From IMG/VR virus record IMGVR_UViG_3300049061_000067, positions 9 through 64,008 of that record: 64,000 nt of DNA. One strand, written 5' to 3'. Source of the DNA: a virus. Shown piece by piece: positions 11,243 to 57,284 of this stretch. The notes under the pieces were generated by a model. The model saw only the letters and a program-made list of their open reading frames with translations. It was not told the DNA's origin and ran no database searches. How positions within the stretch are numbered: position 1 is the stretch's first letter; the number at the start of each line of letters is the position of its first letter. Both the position numbers and the translations under genes were made by a program.

Positions 11243-12553
11243 TTACGCAGCTTTCGTGCGGCCTCGTTTCTTGTTTTCATCTGGTGCGGCAATCATCTTG
11301 TTCTCAGATGGGGCTTCAATTGCCTTGGTCTCACTGTCAGCCCCAATCCATCCGTGTTGCAGTGCTACGGCCGCGGGGATTGATGTGCCCCTACCCGCAT
11401 ACAATGTTACTGCGTCGCTTGGTATGCGCTGATCATTCGTCGCCTTAAAGTTCCCGTCCCGCAATTTCCAGATCCACTTGTCGCAGGTCCACACCTTCAT
11501 ATTGAAATCCTTCCCTCGATAGCGCTCGACTGTTTCAGTAAACGCCTGCCCCAGTCGCTCAAACTCACGCTCCGGTTCAATGGACCGCGCCAGTTCAAGT
11601 ACAATCTGCGAGCGCTCGTGATAGTAGAAGTCGTCAGTTATCAGGCGCACAACTTCATTGAACCATGCTGCTACGTCGTTGCGGTTGATGAAGATACCTG
11701 CTGTGGGGCCAAATGCTTCCTGTAGTCCCAGCGTCGGATGCGCGACTGTTGGAATGCCCGCGCAAGCAGCTTCAATGCCTACACGCCCGTAGGACTCATA
11801 CTCTGACGGCATCAGCAGCACCTTAGTCTTGCGAAAGACATGGCGAATATCAGGTGTGTGTGCCATCCACTCAATGTTACCACTGGCAGGTATTGCGCCG
11901 CCTTTACGCAAGGCGTCAGGCGCAAGAATCATCTGCTCGCCATAGCCGCCCTCAACTGCAAGGAATTCCCTGTCAGGCATCAATCTCGCCAGCGCCTTGA
12001 ATGTTTCAACTCCTTTGCCCGGTGTCGGGTTTACTAGCGTGATCTTCGTGCCGCGCTCGCATTCATAGTGCTCGCGTTCAACCACAGGATGGACTACCAC
12101 TGACGGCGCAAGCCACTCGGCAGGCATGGTCAACCCATTGTACGAGCTTGGGCTTGCCGCCAGCCAGTGCGAGTTGTACACCGTCAACGCGTTCTTGTAT
12201 GGCACACGCGCATCCACGCGCCAGCACATCATCTGCGCGTCGTTGTGGACAAAGTGGACTAGGGGAATCTTGGTTGACATTGCCAGCATCATTGCCTGAT
12301 TGGTGAGATCAAGGTGCGTGACGAGTAAATCCGAACCCGCAACGTAATACTCCAGCCATGACTGCTGACCACGACGAGGCGGGCGAACTACGCTAATGCC
12401 GTCGATTTCGTAAGGGGCGGTCCTGCTGTTCGCGCAGATCACGCGCACCTGATGGCCGCGCTTGACCATTGCGCGCAGGGCTGCGTGCAACGTGGTTTCA
12501 GAACCGGCGCAGTGCTCAGGCGGGAAAAGGTGGATTAGGGCTGTTAGCTTCAT
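11243..12553 (-). CDS. GT4-family glycosyltransferase (retaining, GT-B fold)
   Basis: C-terminal EYESYGRVGIEAACAGIPTVA matches the GT4 E-x7-E/GxP motif. N-terminus MKLTALIHLFPPEHCAGSET matches the GT4 N-terminal pattern. Start chosen at the second Met; the ORF track start is 12592. Confidence 0.65.
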   Translation of the reverse strand: MKLTALIHLFPPEHCAGSETTLHAALRAMVKRGHQVRVICANSRTAPYEIDGISVVRPPRRGQQSWLEYYVAGSDLLVTHLDLTNQAMMLAMSTKIPLVHFVHNDAQMMCWRVDARVPYKNALTVYNSHWLAASPSSYNGLTMPAEWLAPSVVVHPVVEREHYECERGTKITLVNPTPGKGVETFKALARLMPDREFLAVEGGYGEQMILAPDALRKGGAIPASGNIEWMAHTPDIRHVFRKTKVLLMPSEYESYGRVGIEAACAGIPTVAHPTLGLQEAFGPTAGIFINRNDVAAWFNEVVRLITDDFYYHERSQIVLELARSIEPEREFERLGQAFTETVERYRGKDFNMKVWTCDKWIWKLRDGNFKATNDQRIPSDAVTLYAGRGTSIPAAVALQHGWIGADSETKAIEAPSENKMIAAPDENKKRGRTKAA

Positions 12554-12611
12554 TAGCAAGATGGCGGGCGGCTGGCCTTCCGAGGAAAGCAATTAACCGC
12601 CCCTTGCGCCG

Positions 12612-13946
12612 TTACGAATTCGTGCCCGCAAAAAGGTCTATTTTAACTACGGCGGGGGGTCTTAAAACCCCGAACGCCCATCGGCCTTCATACAGGATGT
12701 CAATAATGTTGCGCTCGAAGTGATCGCGGTTTGAGTCGGTGATGTACACCGTTGGATCTTGTCGGTCCCAGACCACCAACTGTTTCAGGTCGCCGGAGTA
12801 GCCGGTGCCTTGCGGAATGACTTCAGACTCGATTACGGGCAGGCCCCAGAGCATCTTTGTGCCCATCTGCATGGGACCGCCAAAGTAGAACTGGCCCTGA
12901 GCGCCACGCGCAAGGTCAATGGTTTCCCAGTCGTAGGGGTTGAGCAGAAAGCCGGTTGAGCGCGCGCGGCCCTGGACCATTGCGGCAGTGCGTGCTTTGC
13001 GGGTCGTTGTTAGCAAGCCGCCGGTAGTGTCCTCGCTGTCGGCAACAAACGGCTGCGGGGTCAGGTTTGGCGTGTTCTCAAGTCCTGTGAAATGGTTCGC
13101 GCCCCCGGGACCGGCAATGATCTCTTCTTCCAGTTCAAGGTCAATGTCTAGCCGCATAAAGTTCGTCATCATCGATTGCAGTTGCGGCGCGTCACTGAGG
13201 ATCGTGCGCGTGGCCTGCATAATGACGGCAATGGTCTTGACACCTGTTTGCACTACTTCCAGCGCCATGCTTGCCTTGGGCTTGAGTGCCAGATCGTCGG
13301 TTGCCGATGTCGCCTCTGGAACAATCTTCGCAGCACGTGTCAGGGAATTAACCCTCACGTACTCGATCAGGTTCGAGCCTGTTTGCAGGATGGTGATCAC
13401 ATCGCGAATTGAAGGCTGACGCAACGGCAGTTCAACAGGCCATGGGCCATAATCGCGGCGCACTAAGCCGCCGCCTGCGGTCACGGGTACCGACATTACC
13501 AGATCCTTGAACGACAGGTCGCCCAGACCAACATCTTTCAGCGCGATGGTAGGCGAGCGACCAAACCTGACCGACGCGTTCATCTCCTTGCCTTCGGGGG
13601 CAATTGACTCGCGCCACGTCTTGAACTCAGGCGCGTTGATAATCGCCTCGCCCATCGTCTTGATTTCAGGCTGCCCGTTGCCGTTGCCATTGCCGTTGCC
13701 AAAGTCAGGGCGGTCCACAGGCTGCGCGAGAAAGGTTTCAATTGCTTTCAGGCGTTTGCTGCGGTCGGCAAACTTGTTCTCTTCGTCAACCTTGGCGCTC
13801 AGTTCCTCAATCGACTTCCAGCGCGTGTCAAGCTCGGCTTGCTGCTCAGTAGTAGGCGTCTCTGCACCCTGCTTGTCCCAGAACGCTTTCTCGGCCTCTA
13901 CCAGCGCCTTAAGCTCCCGTGCTGCTGTTTTCTTCTCTTCCGGCAT
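12612..13946 (-). CDS. Major capsid protein, HK97 fold, with an N-terminal delta/scaffold-like coiled coil
   Basis: 444 aa. The N-terminal ~100 aa are coiled coil and end in a GNGNGNGNG linker, followed by a capsid-like domain. Lies directly downstream of the prohead protease gene with no separate scaffold gene. Confidence 0.65.
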   Translation of the reverse strand: MPEEKKTAARELKALVEAEKAFWDKQGAETPTTEQQAELDTRWKSIEELSAKVDEENKFADRSKRLKAIETFLAQPVDRPDFGNGNGNGNGQPEIKTMGEAIINAPEFKTWRESIAPEGKEMNASVRFGRSPTIALKDVGLGDLSFKDLVMSVPVTAGGGLVRRDYGPWPVELPLRQPSIRDVITILQTGSNLIEYVRVNSLTRAAKIVPEATSATDDLALKPKASMALEVVQTGVKTIAVIMQATRTILSDAPQLQSMMTNFMRLDIDLELEEEIIAGPGGANHFTGLENTPNLTPQPFVADSEDTTGGLLTTTRKARTAAMVQGRARSTGFLLNPYDWETIDLARGAQGQFYFGGPMQMGTKMLWGLPVIESEVIPQGTGYSGDLKQLVVWDRQDPTVYITDSNRDHFERNIIDILYEGRWAFGVLRPPAVVKIDLFAGTNS

Positions 13947-28706: not shown

Positions 28707-30044
28707 TTAGTACATCTCCAGTTCACGTGATGCTTGCGCCAGTCCCAGTTCTGTCATGGCCCACACCATTGCATCCATGCGGTTTGGGCTGGCATCTCCC
28801 GGCGTCCACAGGCACATCTCGTCTTCCAGTTGCGCAAAGTTCCTGCCTACATGATGTGCGCGTCCATGCTCGTACACGCTGGCAATAGGTTCTGCTCGCG
28901 TTTGCTTGCCGCGCGAGGCGTGCACTAATTTAACACGAATGCTTGGGTCAACCGTAGAAATTGTCAGGGAAACCATTTCACCGCCATTGTTCGCTTCGGC
29001 AACAATGCAATTGGCTTGGTGGTGGTGATAAGCCTTGACTGCTGCTGTAGCCCAGGTCTTGGGCGAACCTTGCACGGAGTTGTCAGCAATAACGTAGCCA
29101 ATATTCGCCGTCTTGCCTGCGGTGATAATGCCTGCTTCGTCGCCGGTTGAACTGGCGCTTGGATCGATAGCAACCACAATGCGATCCAGGTCCGGCGCTT
29201 CGTCAACTCGCAGGGACTCGATCAACTCACGCTTCCACAGTGCTCCCGGCGCTTCGTCAACGTCTTCGGCCTCAATCTCCATGCGATAAGCCAGCGCCGT
29301 CATATCGTCGCTGATTTCACTAAGCGCTTCCTTGCTGAGATACGGGTTGTCGTGCGAGGTGAAGTGAAAAGCTGCGTAGCGCACGCTGGTTAACGCCTCA
29401 CGCTGATATTTCTTGAATAGCTTGCCTGCATGTTGCGGGTCATTGGCTTTGCTAACGGAGCGTGAATGCAAGCTCGGCGGCGTGTAGATGAACACTGCAT
29501 CACCGTCGTTATCAAGCAGCATTGGAGCGCCGACCAGACCCCATGCATCCTCATTCATCAACTGCCATTCGTCAAGGTACAAGTCGTCAGCATAGTCGCC
29601 GCGCAATGAGTCGGCGTTCCATGCGGTCTTAGCGCGAATGCGCTGCTCGGTGCCGGGAATCTCCAGCGTGTGGTAGGTTTCGTTTTTAACCACCTGACCC
29701 GCGTCGATGGCCGGTTGCAGTGCGCGCACCACCGTCACCCAATAGCGATGGATCTGTTCTTGTGTTGGTGCTGCGTAAAGCTGCCTGCGCCCTTTGAGGA
29801 AGCGCTTGACCGAGCGAATTGCAACGCCAACTGTCTTGCCGCCACGACGTCCGGCACGGACCACAATGCGCTTGGCGGTGGAGTCGACGAAGGCTTGTTG
29901 TTTAGGGTGATCGGCGGTAGCGGGAAGGTTGACAAGGAGTTCAGTTGATCGCTTTGCTCTCAGCACTCGGAGAAATATCGGCTTCTCTTCCGGCGTCAAG
30001 GTTTGCCATCTCTGCCTCAAATTGTCGGTCAAGTTCTGAGACAT
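28707..30044 (-). CDS. Terminase large subunit
   Basis: Walker A VRAGRRGGKT. ATPase plus C-terminal nuclease-like half. 445 aa. Confidence 0.8.
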   Translation of the reverse strand: MSQNLTDNLRQRWQTLTPEEKPIFLRVLRAKRSTELLVNLPATADHPKQQAFVDSTAKRIVVRAGRRGGKTVGVAIRSVKRFLKGRRQLYAAPTQEQIHRYWVTVVRALQPAIDAGQVVKNETYHTLEIPGTEQRIRAKTAWNADSLRGDYADDLYLDEWQLMNEDAWGLVGAPMLLDNDGDAVFIYTPPSLHSRSVSKANDPQHAGKLFKKYQREALTSVRYAAFHFTSHDNPYLSKEALSEISDDMTALAYRMEIEAEDVDEAPGALWKRELIESLRVDEAPDLDRIVVAIDPSASSTGDEAGIITAGKTANIGYVIADNSVQGSPKTWATAAVKAYHHHQANCIVAEANNGGEMVSLTISTVDPSIRVKLVHASRGKQTRAEPIASVYEHGRAHHVGRNFAQLEDEMCLWTPGDASPNRMDAMVWAMTELGLAQASRELEMY

Positions 30045-30348
30045 CTATTGGCAGTCTATCACGACGAGCAAAGTCCTGTGGAAAACGACGTTCCAGTTTC
30101 CATGCAGCGGCTTGCCAGTTGCCATTGTTGGCGGCTGTCTCAATAACCGTAAGCCAGTTTTGTACACCTTGACCTTCAGCTTCTTTTACGGCTTCGGCAA
30201 ATTCGGAATAGCGCTTACGCCACTCAATGAAGGTGTCAACATGGATTCCTGCTGCATTGCAAGCCTGATTAAACGGCGCACCGAGACGAATGGCGTCAAG
30301 GATCTTCTGCGTGATTTCAGGTGTGTACTTGGTCGGTCTGCCGCTCAT
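29941..30348 (-). CDS. Terminase small subunit
   Basis: N-terminal HTH (KYTPEITQKILDAIRLGAPFNQACNAAGIHVDTFIEWRKRY) is typical of TerS. Overlaps the TerL start. Confidence 0.55.
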   Translation of the reverse strand: MSGRPTKYTPEITQKILDAIRLGAPFNQACNAAGIHVDTFIEWRKRYSEFAEAVKEAEGQGVQNWLTVIETAANNGNWQAAAWKLERRFPQDFARRDRLPIDVSELDRQFEAEMANLDAGREADISPSAESKAIN

Positions 30349-30851: not shown

Positions 30852-31050
30852 AATCACTTATGAATTAGCAATGGCTGCCGGACGCGATGCAGGCAATCGT
30901 TCCATGCGCGAGGGACGGCGAACCAAGTGGGCGGTCAAGGACTGGAATACGGCCTGTGAGACGTTTGAGCGGCTGTATGGCAAGCCTAAGCCGCGTCAGC
31001 GCCGTAAAAACGCCACTGAGCGCGATTCTGCGAGCGTGGCGGGTATCTGA
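30835..31050 (+). CDS. Hypothetical basic protein
   Basis: ORF track. Confidence 0.35.
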   Translation: MMAKVEITYELAMAAGRDAGNRSMREGRRTKWAVKDWNTACETFERLYGKPKPRQRRKNATERDSASVAGI

Positions 31051-31072
31051 GGACTGGAGTCAGGGAGGCAAA

Positions 31073-31297
31073 ATGACAACAAGCGATATAGTTAGCAGTA
31101 TCATCAACCTGCTCCGTGAAGGCTCAGACGGCATTGGCGGCGACTGGGGATGCGATGAAGCCGTGGAAGCGGTGCAAAAGCTGGTAGCAGCATCAGAACG
31201 TCGCCGCTACTGCCCCCGCTGCGGCTGCTCGCTTACCAGCACGGATTATGAGGCTGGGAGATGTACGCAGTGCGGGCACAAGTTGGCGCGGTCATAG
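31073..31297 (+). CDS. Zn-ribbon protein (C-P-R-C-G-C ... C-T-Q-C-G-H)
   Basis: RBS CAGGGAGGCAAAATG. Start refined from the ORF track. Confidence 0.4.
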   Translation: MTTSDIVSSIINLLREGSDGIGGDWGCDEAVEAVQKLVAASERRRYCPRCGCSLTSTDYEAGRCTQCGHKLARS

Positions 31298-31741
31298 GTG
31301 AAAGCCTTTGCGCGTAAAAGTTAGACTTAAAACCGCGCTTGGAAAGTAAAACGACGGATAAGTGTCAATTGATACCTGCAAATCGTGCGTATTACAAAAC
31401 TCCAACGTCTCACCTAAACCATCAAGGCTCAGTCCATATGGTTGCGACAGAATAGCAACGGTCTTCCCGCCCAACTTCCATTCGCTCAAGTGATCGCCAT
31501 ATGGAATACTCGGGCAATCCATGCCGTAACCAGAACATCGTTTACCCTTGAGACGGTTGACGCAAACATGACCGCCTACAGATCGCTGTTGCAAATTGCG
31601 GGTCTTTTTGAAGCTTTCCAAGAGACGTGTACAAGTGGCTTCCGCATAGGCCGGTTCGGTTTCATTGAGCGGAAGGGCCTGTAATGCTCTCACTGCTGCC
31701 CGATATTCCACCGATTGAGTGCTATTAAACCGTGAAATCAT
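31292..31741 (-). CDS. Hypothetical protein (149 aa)
   Basis: ORF track. Confidence 0.4.
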   Translation of the reverse strand: MISRFNSTQSVEYRAAVRALQALPLNETEPAYAEATCTRLLESFKKTRNLQQRSVGGHVCVNRLKGKRCSGYGMDCPSIPYGDHLSEWKLGGKTVAILSQPYGLSLDGLGETLEFCNTHDLQVSIDTYPSFYFPSAVLSLTFTRKGFHL

Positions 31742-32003
31742 AGGCCAAAACCCTCTCTCGGACAGTTTTCACTAAAATACTGTCCGCCGTAAACCTAATA
31801 GTCACATGCAAATACCTTGGGTCGGACAGAATAGGGGTAGGGTCAAATCGCTCCTCCATGCGCATGCGCGCGCGTATGAGAACTTTCATATTACCTGTCC
31901 AATCTGTCCGAGAAGTGTATTAACCAATGAAAACGGGCCTTTGAACCGGACACTTTGCCAAAAACAACTGTCCGGCAACTGTCCGAACTGTCCGTTGAAC
32001 ACG
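31742..32003. repeat. Iteron-like cluster: at least 8 copies of ACTGTCCG/CGGACAGT, including a perfect 8-bp inverted repeat CGGACAGT-N12-ACTGTCCG, plus the alternating-GC tract CATGCGCATGCGCGCGCGTATG
   Basis: Seen directly in the intergenic region next to the primase gene. Confidence 0.5.
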
Positions 32004-33308
32004 TTAAAGAGGTTTGAATCCTTCATACCATGAGCCGTCTGAGCGGCGATAGCGGAAGCCAAGGCGCTCAAGTTCATCCTTAAGCTTCCTTGTGGTTAGC
32101 GTGTAACGGTAGCCGTTTGCCGAGCACCAGCTAAAGTAGGCGCCGTGGACTTCGGCGGTTTGTTCACGGTGCTCGACGGCTTTTTGGTAACGATCCTCAA
32201 GGAACAACGCAACATGGTCGTTATCTTTGTGAAACTCCTGCGATGCGATGCGTACGGAGAGTGGCACGTCAAAATGACCGCGCTCGCGTAAACGTCGCAG
32301 CCCTGTCAAAAATACGTTAACCATTGCTTGCCCGTTGGCAATTATTTCCTGTTTGATTTGCGGCTGAATCTCCACGTCCAAGGGCGGCAGTTTTACGATG
32401 TCAGTGCGGCGGAATATCCCATTGTCGGCATCGTGGATGTAGGGTAGGTGATTCATTGCGCACAGCAACTTGCAACGTGGCGTCAGGTCATATCCGGGTT
32501 GCCCTTTTTGCTCAACCCGTACTGCTTCGCCGCTAATGATACGATTGATAACTGTGGTACAATAGGCATTCTTGACAGGCGGGGCTTCTGAGGCGATAGC
32601 AAGCGTTTTGCCTGCCAGATTCACTAGACCAAAGCGATTGCTGATGTCTGCCGGCGACAGCGTTACCCATCGCTGCGGACCTAGGGCTGCCTGTACTGCT
32701 TCGATAAACGTGCCCTTGCCACAGTTCGGAGGCCCAACCAGCCAGACGGACTTTTCAAACCTTGTGTCCGTGGTCAGGCATAAACCGCCAAACTCTTCGG
32801 TAAACATGCGCACTTCGGCGTCAATGCGTTCGCCCCATTTAGCCCATGCGTCTGACTTAGCCGCAGGGTCGTAATTGAACGGGAGCTTGCTGGTTGCGTA
32901 ATACTTTGGCGAATGCGGCAGGCGTTGAAACGTGTTCAGGTCCAATACACAGTCGTTAAACAGCAGCACGTCCGGGTTGTTGTCAAACTGTTCGTCAGGC
33001 ACCGCACGATAGTCACGCACGAGATCTGAAACACTGGCAATGGCTGCCGACGTCACCTGAAAGTGCTTGTCATCTTCCGCCAGCGATGCTATCTCTTTGC
33101 GGATTCGCAACCCCGGCACCTCGAGGAACACGCCGTCTTTATAGCGAAAGAAACGACCCTGCCCGTAAATTACCGTCTTATGTGCCTGTAGATAGCGGTT
33201 GCGCATCCACAAGTGCGGTGAGAACGCCTTGATCTCCGAGGACGCATCAGCGGCAGGCGGGGTGTTGCCAGCCTTGCCCTTACCGGGTTTAGGGGATTTT
33301 CCTGCCAT
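32004..33308 (-). CDS. DNA primase/helicase, P4/D5 family (SF3 NTPase)
   Basis: Walker A LVGPPNCGKGTF. ~430 aa. An N-terminal D5_N-like region precedes the NTPase. Confidence 0.65.
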   Translation of the reverse strand: MAGKSPKPGKGKAGNTPPAADASSEIKAFSPHLWMRNRYLQAHKTVIYGQGRFFRYKDGVFLEVPGLRIRKEIASLAEDDKHFQVTSAAIASVSDLVRDYRAVPDEQFDNNPDVLLFNDCVLDLNTFQRLPHSPKYYATSKLPFNYDPAAKSDAWAKWGERIDAEVRMFTEEFGGLCLTTDTRFEKSVWLVGPPNCGKGTFIEAVQAALGPQRWVTLSPADISNRFGLVNLAGKTLAIASEAPPVKNAYCTTVINRIISGEAVRVEQKGQPGYDLTPRCKLLCAMNHLPYIHDADNGIFRRTDIVKLPPLDVEIQPQIKQEIIANGQAMVNVFLTGLRRLRERGHFDVPLSVRIASQEFHKDNDHVALFLEDRYQKAVEHREQTAEVHGAYFSWCSANGYRYTLTTRKLKDELERLGFRYRRSDGSWYEGFKPL

Positions 33309-33320
33309 GTGTGGCGAGTG

Positions 33321-33557
33321 TTACTTGTGACCGTTGCCGTTGGACTGCGCTGGTTTAGGTGAAAGCCTTTGTCTGCGACGTGGCGGGTAAAGCTCCCTGC
33401 GCCGCAAAACCTCAGACTCCGGGATAATAAGGGTTGGGCCGATTTTCTTCCAGTTCTTGAGCAGATCCCCGCCGGTAAGCTGGCGCACACGCTGATGCGA
33501 CACGCCAAGCACTTTAGCGGCCTCTTTTACAGTCAGGTATCCCGGAATGATGTTCAC
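33321..33557 (-). CDS. HTH_17 / excisionase-AlpA-like DNA-binding protein
   Basis: LTVKEAAKVLGVSHQRVRQLTGGDLL is an HTH. Directly upstream of the primase gene. Confidence 0.5.
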   Translation of the reverse strand: MNIIPGYLTVKEAAKVLGVSHQRVRQLTGGDLLKNWKKIGPTLIIPESEVLRRRELYPPRRRQRLSPKPAQSNGNGHK

Positions 33558-44771: not shown

Positions 44772-45029
44772 ATGGACGCCGAACAATTACAAACACTGGT
44801 AACCAACGCACTACTGGACCACTGGCCGCCGCATCTGGGCGTGAAGACTGGGGCGGAGAAAATCGCCTATCTGGCTGAGCGGTTGCGAGAGTCAGTAGAT
44901 GTCCAGGCACGCAACGACGAATTGATAGAAGAGAATCGTGATCTGACCGAAAGGGTTGGCGACTTGGAGTCTGACGTTGAGGACCTTGAAGAAGAGATCG
45001 AGGAGTTGAAAGCTAAGGTCAAGCAATGA
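44772..45029 (+). CDS. Acidic coiled-coil protein
   Basis: ORF track. Confidence 0.35.
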   Translation: MDAEQLQTLVTNALLDHWPPHLGVKTGAEKIAYLAERLRESVDVQARNDELIEENRDLTERVGDLESDVEDLEEEIEELKAKVKQ

Positions 45030-46108
45030 TCACCCTCCCCCGCGCCCAACTTGCCGCTGAGCTTGCATTGCTTACTGTTACAGCTGAGCGCAAAACTACG
45101 ATCCCTATACTCAGCACTGTGAGGTTTGAGTTCACCGGCAACACGCTTACGTTTACCAGCACCGACATTGACACTACTATCATCACTGAGATTGAGGCGT
45201 CAGGTGAGCTGTGGTCAGGATGTGTACCGTCAAAGCAGTTACAGGAGTTGGTGCGGCTGTTCAATGGCGACACAGTTGAGTTCACGCCTAAGCCAAACGA
45301 ACGCATTCAGGTCAAGTGTGGTAAGTCAAGTCACAAGTTGCCTGCGTTCCCAGTGGCAAGCTTCCCTGAAACGCAGCAGGCACAAGTGGAGATGGCGGCC
45401 TTGGACGGCGCTCAACTTAAGACGGCAATCGTCCGCGCGCTGAGATGTACCTCCCCTGACGCCGTTGAGGCATGGATGCATGGTATATCGTTGCGGTCGC
45501 GCGATGGAGTACTCACTGTGGCAGGCACCAACAGCCGTCACTTTGCGGTGACAGAGATTGCCACGACGCTGGATGTTGACGTCCTGCTGCATGTTCGTGC
45601 TGCAACTGCGCTAACCAAGTTTCTTGACGGTGAAGTGGAAGTCGGCGCAAACAGTAATCAGGCAGTCTTTCGCCAAGGGTCTAAAGTGTTTGCTACTCGA
45701 CTGCTTGACGCCAAGTTTCCTGACTGGCGACCACTGGTGCCAACTAGCTTCAAACATTCGTTTGTGCTGGACAGTGCGGCCACGGCACTGGCATTCAAGC
45801 TGGCAGCAGTGACCGCCAAAGAGTCGGCGCTGATTCCAGTCCCTTTGCGTCTCAGCCTGTCGCAAACGGAGCTGACCATTGAGACAAAGGAAAGCGAGAT
45901 GGGCCATTCCGTTGAGACTCTGCCGATTGACTGTCCCACGCTAAACGGCGACAAGCTGACTATTGGCGTCAACGGGCAACACTTTATCTCGTTTGTCGAT
46001 CTGGAAAGTAATCCGGTCATGGCTTTCAACGATGACCTGCGATTGTTTCAGTTGGGCGTTGAAGGTGAACCAGGCTATCGCTATATCACCATGACGTTGA
46101 AAGCATAA
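45026..46108 (+). CDS. DNA polymerase III beta sliding clamp homologue
   Basis: 360 aa. TIPILSTVRFEFTGNTLTFTSTDIDTTI resembles E. coli DnaN TLPILGNLLLQVADGTLSLTGTDLEMEM. HKLPAFPVASFPE resembles FSLSTLPAADFPN. Confidence 0.6.
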   Translation: MITLPRAQLAAELALLTVTAERKTTIPILSTVRFEFTGNTLTFTSTDIDTTIITEIEASGELWSGCVPSKQLQELVRLFNGDTVEFTPKPNERIQVKCGKSSHKLPAFPVASFPETQQAQVEMAALDGAQLKTAIVRALRCTSPDAVEAWMHGISLRSRDGVLTVAGTNSRHFAVTEIATTLDVDVLLHVRAATALTKFLDGEVEVGANSNQAVFRQGSKVFATRLLDAKFPDWRPLVPTSFKHSFVLDSAATALAFKLAAVTAKESALIPVPLRLSLSQTELTIETKESEMGHSVETLPIDCPTLNGDKLTIGVNGQHFISFVDLESNPVMAFNDDLRLFQLGVEGEPGYRYITMTLKA

Positions 46109-46383: not shown

Positions 46384-46558
46384 GCTAAAGTTCAAGCCTA
46401 CAGGCAAGCGTCGTTACTGCCCGCATTGTCGTGCCACACGGTTGACGAAGATCTCCACAACTACCATTGAGTGGGACTGCTACGTCGAGGCATGTAAGCG
46501 CTGCGGTAACTGGCTCATTAAGTGGCCCAAGAAGACTTATGACGACTACATACGCTGA
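46367..46558 (+). CDS. Zn-ribbon protein
   Basis: CPHCR...CKRCGN. Confidence 0.4.
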   Translation: MASYAELKFKPTGKRRYCPHCRATRLTKISTTTIEWDCYVEACKRCGNWLIKWPKKTYDDYIR

Positions 46559-48869
46559 TTTTCTGGACAGCAAACGCATCACGGTTGCGCCGAGCGGGTT
46601 CACACCTGAGAGTCTGAGTTCGCATTCATTTGACTTTCAGCGTGACATTACCTGTTGGGCGTTAGAACGCGGCAAGGCGGCAATTTTCTCCGATTGTGGA
46701 ACAGGGAAAAGTTTAATGGAGTTAGACTGGGCTGAGCGTATAGTCCAAAAGCTCAATAAGTCAGTGCTAATCCTCGCACCATTGGCGGTGTCTAGGCAAA
46801 CAGTACGGGAAGGTGCAAAGTTTGGGATCGGGGCGCGTCTTGCTGTCCAGCAGTCGGACATAACAAAGCCCGCGATCTATGTCACCAACTATGAAAAGCT
46901 GCATCATTTCGATCCGTCTACGCTCGTCGGCGTGGTGCTGGATGAGTCGTCAATCCTGAAGTCCTACTCTGGCGCTACTCGTAATCTACTGGTTGAGCAA
47001 TTCGCCAACACGCCAATGAAGCTTTGCGCTACGGCTACGCCCGCACCCAACGACTACATGGAACTTGGCAATCACAGTGAATTCCTTGGTGTGCTAACGC
47101 GCACTGAGATGCTATCAACCTTCTTTGTTCATGATGGCGGTGACACAAGCAAGTGGCGGCTTAAGGGCCATGCTGAGGAAGAATACTGGAAGTGGGTATG
47201 CCAGTGGGCCGTGATGCTGCGTCAGCCTGCCGACTTAGGCTACGACAACAATGGCTTTGTGTTGCCGCCACTAAGCTATCACCATCACGTAGTCAAGTCA
47301 GCACGCAATCTTGACGGGTTCCTGTTTCCAGTGGAAGCGCAAACACTGCTCGAACGACGCGGGGCACGTAGGAACAGCCTAAGCGAGCGTGTTGAACTAT
47401 GCGCGTCGCTGGTCAACGAGTCAACTGAGCCATGGCTGGTCTGGTGCGACCTGAACGCTGAGGGTGACGCGCTGGCAAGATTGATCCCTGATGCCGTGCA
47501 GGTAGCAGGGCGTGACAGCGACGAAGCCAAGGAAGATCGACTGCTTGGGTTTGCCGAAGGACGCTATCGTGTGCTGGTGAGCAAGCCGAGCATTGCGGGG
47601 CACGGTCTAAACCTGCAAATCTGCTCTAACCTTGCCTTCGTTGGTCTAAGCGACTCATGGGAACAGTGGTATCAGGCAGTGCGACGTTGCTGGCGCTTCG
47701 GGCAAACTCGAGAAGTCAACTGCCACGTTATTACCAGTGAGGCTGAGGGCGCCGTGGTACGCAACATCCAACGCAAGGAAGCTGACGCCGCGCGCATGGC
47801 AAAGGAGATGGTGAAGCATATGTCGGTTTACAACACTGAGGCAGTGCATACGGGCACGGTCAGAACCGCTGACACTTACAAGACTGACGTGAAGCGCGGC
47901 GAGCGTTGGGAGATGCGGTTGGGTGATTGTGTTGAGCTGATCAAAGACGTGGCAAGCGATAGCGTTCACTATTCGATATTTAGCCCGCCGTTTGTATCGC
48001 TTTACACGTACAGTTCGTCTGAGCGCGATATGGGTAACGCGCGGGGCGACATGGAGTTCTATGCGCATTTTCAGTTTCTCGTTAAAGAGCTATACCGCGT
48101 GCTGTTACCCGGCCGCTTGCTGTCGTTTCACTGCATGGACATTCCGGCAATGAAAGAGCGTGACGGCTATATCGGCTTGAAAGATTTCCCTGGCGATCTT
48201 ATCCGCATATTTCAGTCAGCGGGGTTTATCTACCACTCACGAGCGTCGATCTGGAAAGATCCGTTGATTGAGGCAACACGCACCAAGGCGCTTGGACTGA
48301 TGCATAAACAAGTAGTCAAAGACAGCGCGATGTGTCGGCAGGGACTACCGGATTATCTGATTACCATGCGCAAGCCCGAAACGAACAGTGAGCCGATCGC
48401 GCGGCCCAACGGGTTTACGGAATTTATTGGCGAGGATGAACCGAAAGCGCGAAAAGGCGAAGCGGTTATTCGAGCTAGGGACATAGCCAATTATGCGGGC
48501 ATGACCAGCGATGATCCGGTTTACAGCCATCAAGTCTGGCGACGCTATGCCTCCCCTGTCTGGATGGACATCAGCCAGTCTGACACGCTACAACGTGAAT
48601 CTGCGCGAGAAGAGGCCGACGAGCGACATGTGTGCCCTTTACAGCTGCAAGTGATTGAGCGCGGACTGGAACTATGGACCAATGTGGGCGATGTGGTCCT
48701 AGATCCTTTTTCAGGCATTGGCAGCACTGGTTACGTAGCCGTGCAACGTGGGCGACGCTTCATCGGGTTTGAACTTAAGGCCAGCTACCACCAGCAAGCC
48801 TGCGCGAACCTGCGCAACGCAGAATCAGCAATAGAACAGACGACGCTGTTTAGCGAGGCCGCAGGATGA
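46539..48869 (+). CDS. SF2 helicase fused to a beta-class DNA methyltransferase (N4C/N6A; the SPPF motif suggests N4-cytosine)
   Basis: Walker A DCGTGKS, DExx VLDESS, motif III ATATPAPN. C-terminal half has IFSPPF (motif IV) before DPFSGIGSTG (motif I), the beta-class circular permutation. Confidence 0.6.
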   Translation: MTTTYADFLDSKRITVAPSGFTPESLSSHSFDFQRDITCWALERGKAAIFSDCGTGKSLMELDWAERIVQKLNKSVLILAPLAVSRQTVREGAKFGIGARLAVQQSDITKPAIYVTNYEKLHHFDPSTLVGVVLDESSILKSYSGATRNLLVEQFANTPMKLCATATPAPNDYMELGNHSEFLGVLTRTEMLSTFFVHDGGDTSKWRLKGHAEEEYWKWVCQWAVMLRQPADLGYDNNGFVLPPLSYHHHVVKSARNLDGFLFPVEAQTLLERRGARRNSLSERVELCASLVNESTEPWLVWCDLNAEGDALARLIPDAVQVAGRDSDEAKEDRLLGFAEGRYRVLVSKPSIAGHGLNLQICSNLAFVGLSDSWEQWYQAVRRCWRFGQTREVNCHVITSEAEGAVVRNIQRKEADAARMAKEMVKHMSVYNTEAVHTGTVRTADTYKTDVKRGERWEMRLGDCVELIKDVASDSVHYSIFSPPFVSLYTYSSSERDMGNARGDMEFYAHFQFLVKELYRVLLPGRLLSFHCMDIPAMKERDGYIGLKDFPGDLIRIFQSAGFIYHSRASIWKDPLIEATRTKALGLMHKQVVKDSAMCRQGLPDYLITMRKPETNSEPIARPNGFTEFIGEDEPKARKGEAVIRARDIANYAGMTSDDPVYSHQVWRRYASPVWMDISQSDTLQRESAREEADERHVCPLQLQVIERGLELWTNVGDVVLDPFSGIGSTGYVAVQRGRRFIGFELKASYHQQACANLRNAESAIEQTTLFSEAAG

Positions 48870-52827: not shown

Positions 52828-53304
52828 TCATCGAAGTACCTGGTTGAGTTGCTGTAGCGCCTGGGCCAGCGTCTGGTCCTTCTGCTCGTCTTGCTTGCGG
52901 TCCTTGATGACGAGATTAAACGTAGGAGTCTTGCGGTGCTGGCGCGGGTTCTTCTGGCGTGGGAACACAAGCGAACTATACTGCGCCGACTCAAGTGGGA
53001 AGGCTCGATCCAGCGGCACATCTTTGTAACCCATCCAGTCACTCACGCAGGCAATGTCTGCTTGATCTTCTGACGAGAAGAAGCCGCCGTTTTCAAACCA
53101 GAACACTGTTACCTTTTTGCCGTTGACCTCTACGCCCTTGGGACACGGGACCTTCATCACATTCCATGAGAAGTGAATAAACGGGCGAAAGATATACCTG
53201 AAGAACGCCTTGCGATACCACGGGGTAGCAGGGTCAAGCTCCCACTTCCAGTGAGCCACCATCCAGATCCTGTCCGAAGATTCTGTGACTCGCTCTGGAA
53301 CCAC
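52828..53304 (-). CDS. Hypothetical protein (158 aa; possibly lysis-associated)
   Basis: ORF track. Confidence 0.35.
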   Translation of the reverse strand: MVPERVTESSDRIWMVAHWKWELDPATPWYRKAFFRYIFRPFIHFSWNVMKVPCPKGVEVNGKKVTVFWFENGGFFSSEDQADIACVSDWMGYKDVPLDRAFPLESAQYSSLVFPRQKNPRQHRKTPTFNLVIKDRKQDEQKDQTLAQALQQLNQVLR

Positions 53305-53306
53305 TG

Positions 53307-53477
53307 CTAGCCGCCCCCCTGTCCCTTGCCGGGGTTATCAATGTCGCCTTGCGGCTCCGGCTTCGGTGTCGGTGCGGGAGCGGGCTGCGGCTGCTTAGGC
53401 TGCGTCGGCTTAGTTGGCTGCGTCGGCTGATTCCGTTGTCTCTCCCTGTCCTTGTCCATCTCGTCTTCTGTGTGCAT
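53307..53477 (-). CDS. Pro/Gln-rich small protein (56 aa)
   Basis: MHTEDEMDKDRERQRNQPTQPTKPTQPKQPQPAPAPTPKPEPQGDIDNPGKGQGGG. Below the ORF-track cutoff. Confidence 0.3.
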   Translation of the reverse strand: MHTEDEMDKDRERQRNQPTQPTKPTQPKQPQPAPAPTPKPEPQGDIDNPGKGQGGG

Positions 53478-53521
53478 GGTTGCTTGTCACCTTTCTCGGG
53501 TTATGAAACTGTAAACTAACT

Positions 53522-53956
53522 CTACGCCTCTTTGCTGAGGCGTACCACATTTGCCAGACACAGTTTGCGCTTGCGAAACACGCGCGGGAACAGTCCGATC
53601 TCCACTGGAAACGTCTGGCCGCTGCGCTCTCTCCCGTAGAGCACCGTATCGCGTCGGCCCATGCTGCGAGTCTGCATTGCCTGTCCGAAGCTTTGAACGT
53701 AGCCTACGTGCCCGTGACGATAGTTTTCCGGCACCAGCTCGATCAGATCCAGCCCAGCCATCTCGTCAGTCACGTAGCCAAAGATCGCTTCGGCACCCGG
53801 CGTAGCGTAGATTACCTTCTGCGTCTCGATGTCCACCAGCACGAAGCCTGCTTTGTCTGCGCCCCAGATCTTGATAGCGTCAATGTCGCTTTGAGTGAGC
53901 ACGGACGGATCGATGTCGTCTACCACGGCTACCAGTTTGTCTAGTTCTGAGCTCAT
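53522..53956 (-). CDS. Standalone FixL-like heme-PAS domain protein
   Basis: AEAIFGYVTDEMAGLDLIELVPENYRHGHVGYVQSF...GRRDTVLYGRERSGQTFPVEIGLF aligns with the Bradyrhizobium FixL heme-PAS [36 protein letters not shown]...GRIVTGKRRDGTTFPMHLSIGEM, including the proximal His. Confidence 0.55.
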   Translation of the reverse strand: MSSELDKLVAVVDDIDPSVLTQSDIDAIKIWGADKAGFVLVDIETQKVIYATPGAEAIFGYVTDEMAGLDLIELVPENYRHGHVGYVQSFGQAMQTRSMGRRDTVLYGRERSGQTFPVEIGLFPRVFRKRKLCLANVVRLSKEA

Positions 53957-56477: not shown

Positions 56478-57284
56478 ATGAGATACTTGTCAATGTTAAT
56501 TCTCGTGGTGCTAGCCGCTCTAACAAGTGGCTGTAACTACGCCGAGGAACAAGGAACCGTCGCGGTGGAGACTAGTTACGGCAAGATTGTAAAAGTTCAC
56601 GAACCGGGAGAATCGTTTAGCTGCTTCTCGTACGGTTGCGACTCTTACGAAGTTGACTTGCGCGATCACATGGACGGGGTAGACTGTGCGGGTGTAACCA
56701 GCGACAATATTCCTTTCTACATGAAGGTAGACGTGGTTCACAAGCCTATCAAAGATCGCGTTGCGGAGTATATTTCGTTATTCGGGGCGGAACCTGATGG
56801 GCGTAGTCAAAAGCGTTGGGCCGTATTAAAGCAGCATGTGGGAAACGCCTGCCGCAATGCTACGTCGGGTCGCTATAACGCTTATGATTTGCGTTCTAAG
56901 CAAGCCGAAGTATTAGCAGCAATTCAAGCTGAGCTTGCTCCAAAACTGAGCGCGGAAATGGCCTTGAGCCTTTCAAGTGTTGGCATGGAGATTCAGCCAC
57001 AGTTTTCAGACCCACGTATTGACGAAGCAGCAAACGCTGTCGTGGCAGCACAGAAGCAAAAGGAAGCTGAGGGCGCGTTAAAGGCCGCTGCTGATATTCG
57101 CGCAGAACGTCAACAGGTAGAAGCGCGGATTTACGCAAACCCGCTGGCTTATAAAATTGAAGAACTGAAACTCCTTAAGGAAATTGAGCAAGTACGCGCC
57201 GAAGGGATTGCACGACACCAAGGAACGCTCATTCTTGGTCAAACGGGCATCACGCCACAACTGCAAATAGGAGGGCAAAAGTGA
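56478..57284 (+). CDS. SPFH/Band-7 (prohibitin/HflKC-like) domain lipoprotein
   Basis: Lipoprotein signal MRYLSMLILVVLAALTSGC. C-terminal coiled-coil region ...RIYANPLAYKIEELKLLKEIEQVRAEGIARH is typical of the SPFH family. Confidence 0.55.
   Translation: MRYLSMLILVVLAALTSGCNYAEEQGTVAVETSYGKIVKVHEPGESFSCFSYGCDSYEVDLRDHMDGVDCAGVTSDNIPFYMKVDVVHKPIKDRVAEYISLFGAEPDGRSQKRWAVLKQHVGNACRNATSGRYNAYDLRSKQAEVLAAIQAELAPKLSAEMALSLSSVGMEIQPQFSDPRIDEAANAVVAAQKQKEAEGALKAAADIRAERQQVEARIYANPLAYKIEELKLLKEIEQVRAEGIARHQGTLILGQTGITPQLQIGGQK

Follow-up and report, generated by a model that had tools for sequence, protein, structure and literature searches.

The 64-kb window analysed here, taken from the IMG/VR virus record IMGVR_UViG_3300049061_000067, contains a non-coding spacer of 262 bp (positions 31742-32003, minus strand) that extends from the stop codon of rep to the start codon of the next gene. 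This spacer probably is the replication origin of a tailed phage and, judged from its sequence, is organised like the origins of SaPI/PICI satellites (Staphylococcus aureus pathogenicity islands, SaPIs; phage-inducible chromosomal islands, PICIs). It carries an array of nine short repeats, or iterons (I1-I9), and the adjoining gene, rep (32004-33308, minus strand), encodes an initiator/helicase of 434 residues, Rep, which combines D5_N, a DUF5906 superfamily 3 (SF3) ATPase and a Pox_D5-like C-terminal winged helix. A sequence-only reading of the window had proposed a candidate replication origin beside a P4/D5-type protein, and every computational test that was run supports this proposal. That Rep would bind the iterons can be stated with higher confidence than that the spacer would function as an origin.

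Hexamer and 8-mer scans, both confined to the window, reveal a strong concentration of the repeats. The spacer holds eight exact CTGTCC/GGACAG hexamers and one GTGTCC variant, giving nine sites, and 28 copies of the hexamer are distributed over the remaining 63.7 kb. With 0.115 hexamers expected per 262 bp, the Poisson probability of the cluster is 7e-13 (~2e-10 when corrected for 244 windows). No second iteron cluster is found in the 64 kb, the densest other 262-bp stretch containing three scattered hexamers. Four same-strand CTGTCC copies at 53270-53686 (~410 bp, the second densest spot) were considered as a counterpart of crr, the second iteron region of P4, but have no common flanks or phasing, lie largely inside open reading frames (ORFs) and were judged to be a chance occurrence.

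The cluster is thus present where the sequence-only reading had placed it, although its description as at least eight copies of an 8-mer needs to be amended: exact copies of ACTGTCCG/CGGACAGT number only five in the spacer (31759 on the minus, 31779, 31967, 31978 and 31987 on the plus strand), and eight are reached if one mismatch is allowed (in addition 31823 minus, 31903 plus and 31947 minus). A single exact copy occurs elsewhere (23979), so that the 8-mer is not equally frequent in the rest of the window. The repeat unit proper is the hexamer CTGTCC/GGACAG rather than the 8-mer; in this phage, the repeat is extended to CGGACAGT around GGACAG, and one hexamer copy, at 31895, was absent from the earlier set. 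The other elements of that description, namely the perfect inverted pair CGGACAGT-N12-ACTGTCCG (31759-31786), three tandem copies (31964-31994) and an alternating purine-pyrimidine GC tract, CATGCGCATGCGCGCGCGTATG, of 22 nt (31857-31878), are all found as claimed.

Read in the direction of rep, the array begins 10 bp past the stop codon with three direct GGACAG copies, I1, I2 and I3 (31988-93, 31979-84 and 31968-73; together 31968-31993, minus strand), whose starts are 9 and 11 bp apart. I4, 20 bp after I3, is inverted and, in this phage, degenerate (it reads GTGTCC on the rep strand; 31948-31953, plus strand). An AT-rich interval (31910-31947), a candidate DNA-unwinding element, leads to I5 and I6, two direct GGACAG copies at a spacing of 9 bp (31904-09 and 31895-900; together 31895-31909, minus strand); the start-to-start distance of 44 bp between I4 and I5 is conserved. 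Next come the GC-rich tract of the TATACGCGCG... type, in which purines and pyrimidines alternate perfectly, and a conserved block, GCGA(A/T)TTGA(A) (31843-31852, minus strand; alignment consensus GGGGCGAATTGAAA). I7 is again inverted (CTGTCC on the rep strand; 31824-31829, plus strand), its distance from I6 being variable (58-76 bp) and that to I8 fixed (43-45 bp). I8 (31780-85, direct) and I9 (31760-65, inverted), which span 31760-31785 and start 20 bp apart, constitute the perfect inverted pair; it ends ~18 bp ahead of the start codon of the next gene.

Nearest-neighbour stability profiles place three segments of the spacer (31875-31899, 31790-31814 and 31910-31934) among the top 0.7% least stable 25-mers of the window, and the alternating GC tract, positioned between low-stability segments, among the most stable ones (bottom 0.3%). 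In ten of 13 relatives, the least stable 25-mer of the spacer is the I4-I5 interval. A search of the spacer against Rfam gave no match, and a scan of it for sigma-70-like promoters found none; promoter elements picked out by manual inspection (TTGGACA/TTGATA ... TATACG) were dismissed on account of their inconsistent spacers of 11-21 nt.

The same architecture recurs in related loci. The comparison set comprises 13 further distinct loci with Reps 39-98% identical to that of the window (L003 being a duplicate of L002); three loci came from a metagenome scan and most others from exact-protein look-up. In all 13, a spacer of ~190-380 bp follows the rep stop codon, the first iteron is located 2-23 bp past this codon, and each locus has 7-11 iterons. 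The spacers of 12 relatives (Reps 54-69% identical) can be aligned with that of the window, the repeats occupying the same nine positions in a common order: I1-I3 direct, I4 inverted, an AT-rich interval, I5-I6 direct, an A-rich stretch, the TATACGCGCG... tract, GCGAATTGAAA, I7 in one or two inverted copies, an interval of low conservation, I8 direct, I9 inverted, and then the next gene. Start-to-start spacings are nearly invariant (9, 11, 20, 44, 9, 58-76, 44 and 20 bp). The 9/11 spacing of I1-I3 is seen in 11 of the 13 tabulated related loci (L001 included); exceptions are L020 (9/10), L016 (11/11/11) and L026, which has a different layout; L018 keeps the spacing but has a GGACAC variant as its first copy. 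I4 is an exact CTGTCC at the matching position in most relatives, and the AT-rich I4-I5 interval contains a motif, GATGTTTATTGA, that is conserved across iteron classes. The sequence between the sites, for example from I7 to I8, is much less conserved while its length is held, as expected of a nucleoprotein complex that assembles on one face of duplex DNA. The 98%-identical Rep is encoded on a 65.8-kb IMG/VR contig and more distant relatives on contigs of 69-73 kb; when the rep-ori region was compared at the nucleotide level with 50,697 GenBank phage records, no match was returned, and a scan of 185,579 GTDB genomes with the Rep profile gave no relatives.

Among the relatives, four different iteron words are used: GGACAG, GGACGG, GAACCGC and CGGGAGGAT. 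L021 has GGACGG at all nine positions and L005 GAACCGC(A) at all positions; such all-or-none replacement at fixed positions points to a single sequence-specific reader with changed specificity. The fourth word belongs to L026 (4269-4460, on a 73-kb contig), the Rep of which is 39% identical to that of the window. Its seven copies of a CGGGAG core occur in both orientations, begin 2 bp past the stop codon and lie on either side of an AT-rich stretch, again together with CGCGCGC; five of the seven are the full 9-mer CGGGAGGAT/ATCCTCCCG. The arrangement is thus not confined to the close family but reaches well beyond it.

The iteron words can be compared with the Reps that presumably read them. 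A total of 140 alignment columns are invariant in 11 Reps of the GGACAG class; six of these are altered in either switched Rep and two in both, R422, replaced by N or H, and S426, replaced by K in both. The two residues sit on either side of the wing hairpin's tip (R-S-[DN]-G-S-W) in the C-terminal domain of Rep, which makes wing residues 422 and 426 candidates for the specificity determinants. P0003, the closest overall relative of the switched Rep P0002, yet keeps RSNGSW; GGACAG iterons were predicted for it, and its locus, L024, indeed has ten.

The two genes that border the rep-ori region are poor candidates for the reader. Directly upstream of rep, in the same operon, lies the gene of a small DNA-binding protein of the HTH_17/excisionase family (33321-33557, minus strand), which matches the TIGR01764 excisionase family with an E-value of 2.6e-5 (24.5 bits, under the curated cutoff of 28.8) and whose homologs are called HTH_17. 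This protein is ~95% identical between L002 (GGACAG) and L005 (GAACCGC) and 20-38% identical among several GGACAG loci; near-identical copies are thus found beside different iteron words, and since the protein does not track the word, it is not the iteron binder. Downstream of the spacer, an ORF of 149 residues (31292-31741, minus strand), for which no Pfam, PHROG or NCBIfam match was found, is a mosaic neighbour and not part of the mechanism: the downstream ORFs of the relatives belong to at least five unrelated families that cross iteron classes (family C in L005 and L019, family D in L018 and L021), which disqualifies them as binder or as regulated target.

Rep itself matches Pfam D5_N (1e-13), DUF5906 (3e-16) and Pox_D5 (7e-9) and reaches 164 bits against TIGR01613 (phage/plasmid primase, P4 family, C-terminal domain; cutoff 108.7). 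The PHROG families that it matches are labelled DNA primase (one helicase), and the matches cover their helicase-containing C-terminal parts. No primase domain is found in Rep, D5_N starting after a disordered N-terminus of 30 residues; Rep represents the helicase/initiator portion alone and is no primase. The earlier description of the cluster as flanking a primase gene is accordingly right in that the array adjoins the gene, but it does so on one side only, immediately 3', and the primase domain is missing. A profile built from Rep and 17 homologs retrieved one significant structure from the PDB, SaPI5 PriRep5 (7OLA/7OM0, E 4.6e-28). Foldseek, applied to the AlphaFold2 model of Rep (mean predicted local distance difference test score, pLDDT, of 80.8), listed SaPI5 PriRep chains for all top matches (7OLA, E 6e-19, ~410 aligned columns), followed by poxvirus D5/E5 and African swine fever virus helicases. 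In the model, residues 365-433 adopt a helix-strand-helix-helix-strand-wing-strand succession, that is, a winged helix, with a pLDDT of ~90. A sequence search with the C-terminal domain of Rep alone did not recover the structure of the P4 alpha origin-binding domain.

By analogy with the SaPI Reps (PMC9371898), the spacer could initiate replication as follows: The C-terminal winged-helix domain of Rep, a putative self-loading SF3 helicase-initiator, would recognise GGACAG, and Rep monomers positioned on I1-I9, sites arranged with fixed helical phasing, would oligomerise into one or more hexamers. The Rep complex may then deform the AT-rich DNA of low stability that separates the repeat sets and melt it, so that the helicase could encircle single strands and load itself. 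Host primase and polymerase, together with the beta clamp of the phage, would take over priming and synthesis; these steps are assigned to host enzymes because the tests of window ORFs revealed neither a primase nor a DNA polymerase gene. For this scheme we infer the binding itself, the melting site, the firing of the origin and its bidirectionality.

The passages on origins in PMC9371898 (citing Ubeda et al. 2007, 2012) describe SaPI Reps as binding 6-12 penta- or hexanucleotide iterons that are located immediately downstream of rep and have an AT-rich centre; according to the same passages, binding occurs via the C-terminal winged-helix domain, and these Reps melt the origin without ATP and load themselves (PMC9371898). 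The same rep-ori organisation is functional in Gram-negative PICIs, where ori cloning was carried out with EcCICFT073 pri-rep-ori (PMC6092414). Of the systems compared, this organisation appears to be the best match in function and architecture to that of the phage, with the orientation rule partly matched. Both comprise (i) an SF3 helicase with a C-terminal winged helix as initiator, SaPI5 PriRep being the best match of Rep in the PDB by sequence and by fold; (ii) an origin immediately 3' of rep with short iterons (6-12 of 5-6 nt there, nine hexamers here); (iii) repeats on both sides of an AT-rich region and in both orientations, although the sets here are not simply opposed and the region is only modestly AT-rich in the window; (iv) alleles with differing iteron sequences matched to the Rep C-terminus, here as suggested by co-variation; and (v) an AlpA/excisionase-type HTH gene upstream of rep, as in Gram-negative PICIs. 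The differences are also clear. A tailed phage of ~65 kb that brings its own genes for capsid, protease, portal and terminase contrasts with a satellite of 10-15 kb, rep has no primase gene beside it or fused to it, an alternating (CG/CA)n tract is conserved in addition, and Rep is only ~23% identical to PriRep5. The SaPI/PICI rule of at least two opposed iterons per side also meets a different order here, with I1-I3 direct and I4 inverted before the AT-rich region, and I5-I6 direct, I7 inverted, I8 direct and I9 inverted after it.

Other known systems fit less well. The sequence-only reading had seen a match to P4-type origins, which holds for the helicase part of Rep, as its score above the TIGR01613 cutoff indicates, but not for the overall architecture, which is closest to the SaPI/PICI origin and not to the bipartite ori/crr of P4. 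In P4, iterons of the octamer TGTTCACC type are located in two separated regions, ori and crr, and the C-terminal domain of the alpha protein is said, in work attributed to Ziegelin and Lanka, to bind type I iterons at the origin. Alpha also possesses an N-terminal primase domain, whereas Rep has none, and the 64-kb window contains a single cluster that abuts the gene; the absence of both a primase domain and a bipartite ori/crr means that the phage does not have a strict P4-type system. The pRN1 origin (ORF904 type) is likewise found directly downstream of a prim-pol replicase gene that encodes an SF3 helicase along with a winged-helix domain, but it is a stem-loop of ~100 nt without iterons, for which no specific replicase binding was detected (PMC4234260). 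Here, in contrast, there is an iteron array and no long conserved stem, RNAalifold indicating only short iteron-iteron pairings. Iteron plasmids and phage lambda share with the phage an element-encoded initiator and phased short repeats near an AT-rich unwinding element. In lambda, a GC-rich or palindromic element lies beside the AT-rich region, and the origin is situated inside the O gene. RepA, pi, TrfA and lambda O are, however, not helicases but recruit host DnaB, and their iterons measure 17-22 bp, whereas hexamers are combined with an SF3 helicase here.

Several observations weigh against reading the spacer as an origin of this kind. No primase was found in the window, the orientation pattern (a direct triplet plus single inverted copies) departs from the opposed sets published for SaPIs, the central interval is only moderately AT-rich in the window (~36% GC), and I4 is degenerate there. 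Furthermore, the last inverted pair, I8/I9, is located just upstream of the ribosome-binding site of the next gene, which would allow some of the array to function as an operator. As to specificity, the co-variation rests on two switched Reps in the close family, both of which share K426 and could go back to one ancestral event, and residues 406-415, the putative recognition helix, differ among Reps of the GGACAG class.

The position of I8/I9 leads to the alternative that deserves most attention: the repeats might be operators, bound by Rep or by a regulator so as to control transcription across the junction of rep and the downstream gene, for instance in autoregulation, a late-gene switch or copy-number 'handcuffing', and not the start of replication. 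The spacer is situated between co-oriented genes, with the inverted pair ~18 bp before the next start codon and packaging genes ~1.4 kb further downstream in the window, and iterons of plasmid systems commonly double as origin and regulatory sites. Yet no sigma-70-like promoter was detected in the spacer, and in the relatives the downstream gene is swapped and later genes are usually on the opposite strand while the array is unchanged; moreover, nine sites over 230 bp with an AT-rich core beside a self-loading helicase correspond to a published origin layout. We therefore regard operators in place of an origin as unlikely. The two roles are mutually compatible, and I8/I9 could have a secondary regulatory role for Rep.

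The inverted hexamers have also to be considered as hairpins in RNA or single-stranded DNA, forming a terminator, an attenuator or a stem-loop origin of the pRN1 type, with word switches being compensatory changes. RNAalifold pairs I3 with I4, I2 with I9 and I5-I6 with I7, with both partners changed in 13 pairs, I2-I3 overlap with a weak terminator-like match, and stem-loop origins 3' of the gene are known for pRN1 and some phage prim-pol/SF3 replicases (PMC4234260). All of this 'covariation', however, amounts to one motif pairing with its own inverted copies, and direct copies without a partner, such as I1, switch as well; the stems have only 6-9 bp and loops of 14 to more than 80 nt, a consistent U-tract and an Rfam match are absent, and start-to-start spacings of 9, 11, 20 and 44 bp agree with a protein bound along one face of a DNA duplex. 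An RNA element was rejected on these grounds, and hairpin function in general seems highly improbable. The small terminase gene terS (29941-30348), terL and the portal gene follow downstream on the same strand in the window, as would suit a packaging site (cos/pac) with binding sites for the small terminase comparable to lambda cosB; but the array is separated from terS by 1.4 kb and other ORFs, it stays with the helicase gene in the relatives, where unrelated small ORFs come next, most of them on the other strand and no terminase gene among them, and its repeat sequence co-varies with the helicase C-terminus, which renders a packaging role extremely unlikely. A chance cluster or functionless low-complexity repeat, for which only the shortness of the motif speaks, can practically be dismissed at P ~7e-13, with position, number and spacing conserved where Reps are only 39-69% identical.

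A further component of the probable origin, besides the iterons, is the alternating tract, the sole alternating run of at least 14 nt in the window. Its ACGCGC core is near-invariant in relatives of all iteron classes, the counterpart in L026 being CGCGCGC, and in the alignment the tract and the GCGAATTGAAA block after it are conserved whatever the iteron word; both are therefore independent of Rep specificity. Of the two structures proposed for the tract from sequence alone, cruciform and Z-DNA, the former is unlikely because palindromes are not kept in the relatives, as opposed to the purine-pyrimidine alternation. Z-DNA propensity, a host-factor site or a priming site are possible explanations. 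The descriptions of PICI origins in PMC6092414 and in the origin passages of PMC9371898 mention no such alternating element. A bolder proposal, which we consider rather doubtful, treats the rep-ori region as a portable cassette whose specificity might be reprogrammed by as few as two residues, 422 and 426, of the Rep wing. In this view, the Z-DNA-prone (CG/CA)n tract, which is invariant and lies between two segments that melt easily, might be a new functional part of the origin, such as one that responds to supercoiling or a defined site for priming.

Current understanding is not overturned, since a P4/D5-type initiator would be expected to have an iteron origin next to it: origins of this type have been described before, and the occurrence of one in a new family of phages of ~65-70 kb is a modest extension. 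If confirmed, it would provide a precisely delimited origin of ~260 bp, together with its initiator, for an uncultivated phage family; it would also show the PICI-type organisation of origins to exist in full-size phages, a point relevant to where the replication modules of satellites arose. The four iteron words and the matched Rep variants, two of which depart together from the common type at only two class-invariant residues, would form a natural set in which DNA recognition by self-loading SF3 initiators and the evolution of replicon specificity (incompatibility) could be studied.

The rep-ori region also behaves as a mosaic cassette with regard to its surroundings. Near-identical HTH_17 genes (L002, 4788-4988; L005, 1669-1869) are situated beside Reps of different iteron specificity, and the independent exchange of upstream and downstream genes indicates recombination breakpoints on both sides of rep-ori. 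The 149-residue ORF belongs to a Cys/His-containing family with motifs such as HVCVYRLKG and GDHLSEW, homologs of which (50-56% identity) occur in L004 (6570-7031), L022 (1736-2221) and L023 (1737-2216). Between this ORF and the terminase genes, and convergent with the former by a 6-bp overlap, lies an ORF of 136 residues (30887-31297, plus strand) with weak zinc-ribbon/rubredoxin-like matches.

The element as a whole is a complete tailed phage of ~65 kb and not a satellite; its close relatives are viral contigs of 65-69 kb. The window encodes an HK97-type major capsid protein, a prohead protease, a portal, TerL, TerS and tail-fibre-like proteins, and in addition a PD-(D/E)XK nuclease, an AAA_24 ATPase, a beta sliding clamp and a SNF2-helicase/methyltransferase fusion. 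Neither an integrase nor a PICI repressor was seen near the rep-ori module, the window not having been fully surveyed for either. The DNA polymerase III beta sliding clamp (45026-46108, plus strand) contains all three beta-clamp Pfam domains, and the fusion protein of 800 residues (46467-48869, plus strand) joins a SNF2-type helicase (Helicase_C, PHROG 16/62) to an N6/N4 DNA methyltransferase domain. Inside the structural module, a family-4 glycosyltransferase gene (also matched as 'GT4-conflict'; 11243-12592, minus strand) adjoins the major capsid gene (12612-13946). A protein of 268 residues (56478-57284, plus strand) belongs to the SPFH/Band 7 family, and an ORF of 144 residues (53522-53956, minus strand) matches the PAS domain (E 1e-5), a sensor-type domain that is unusual in a phage.

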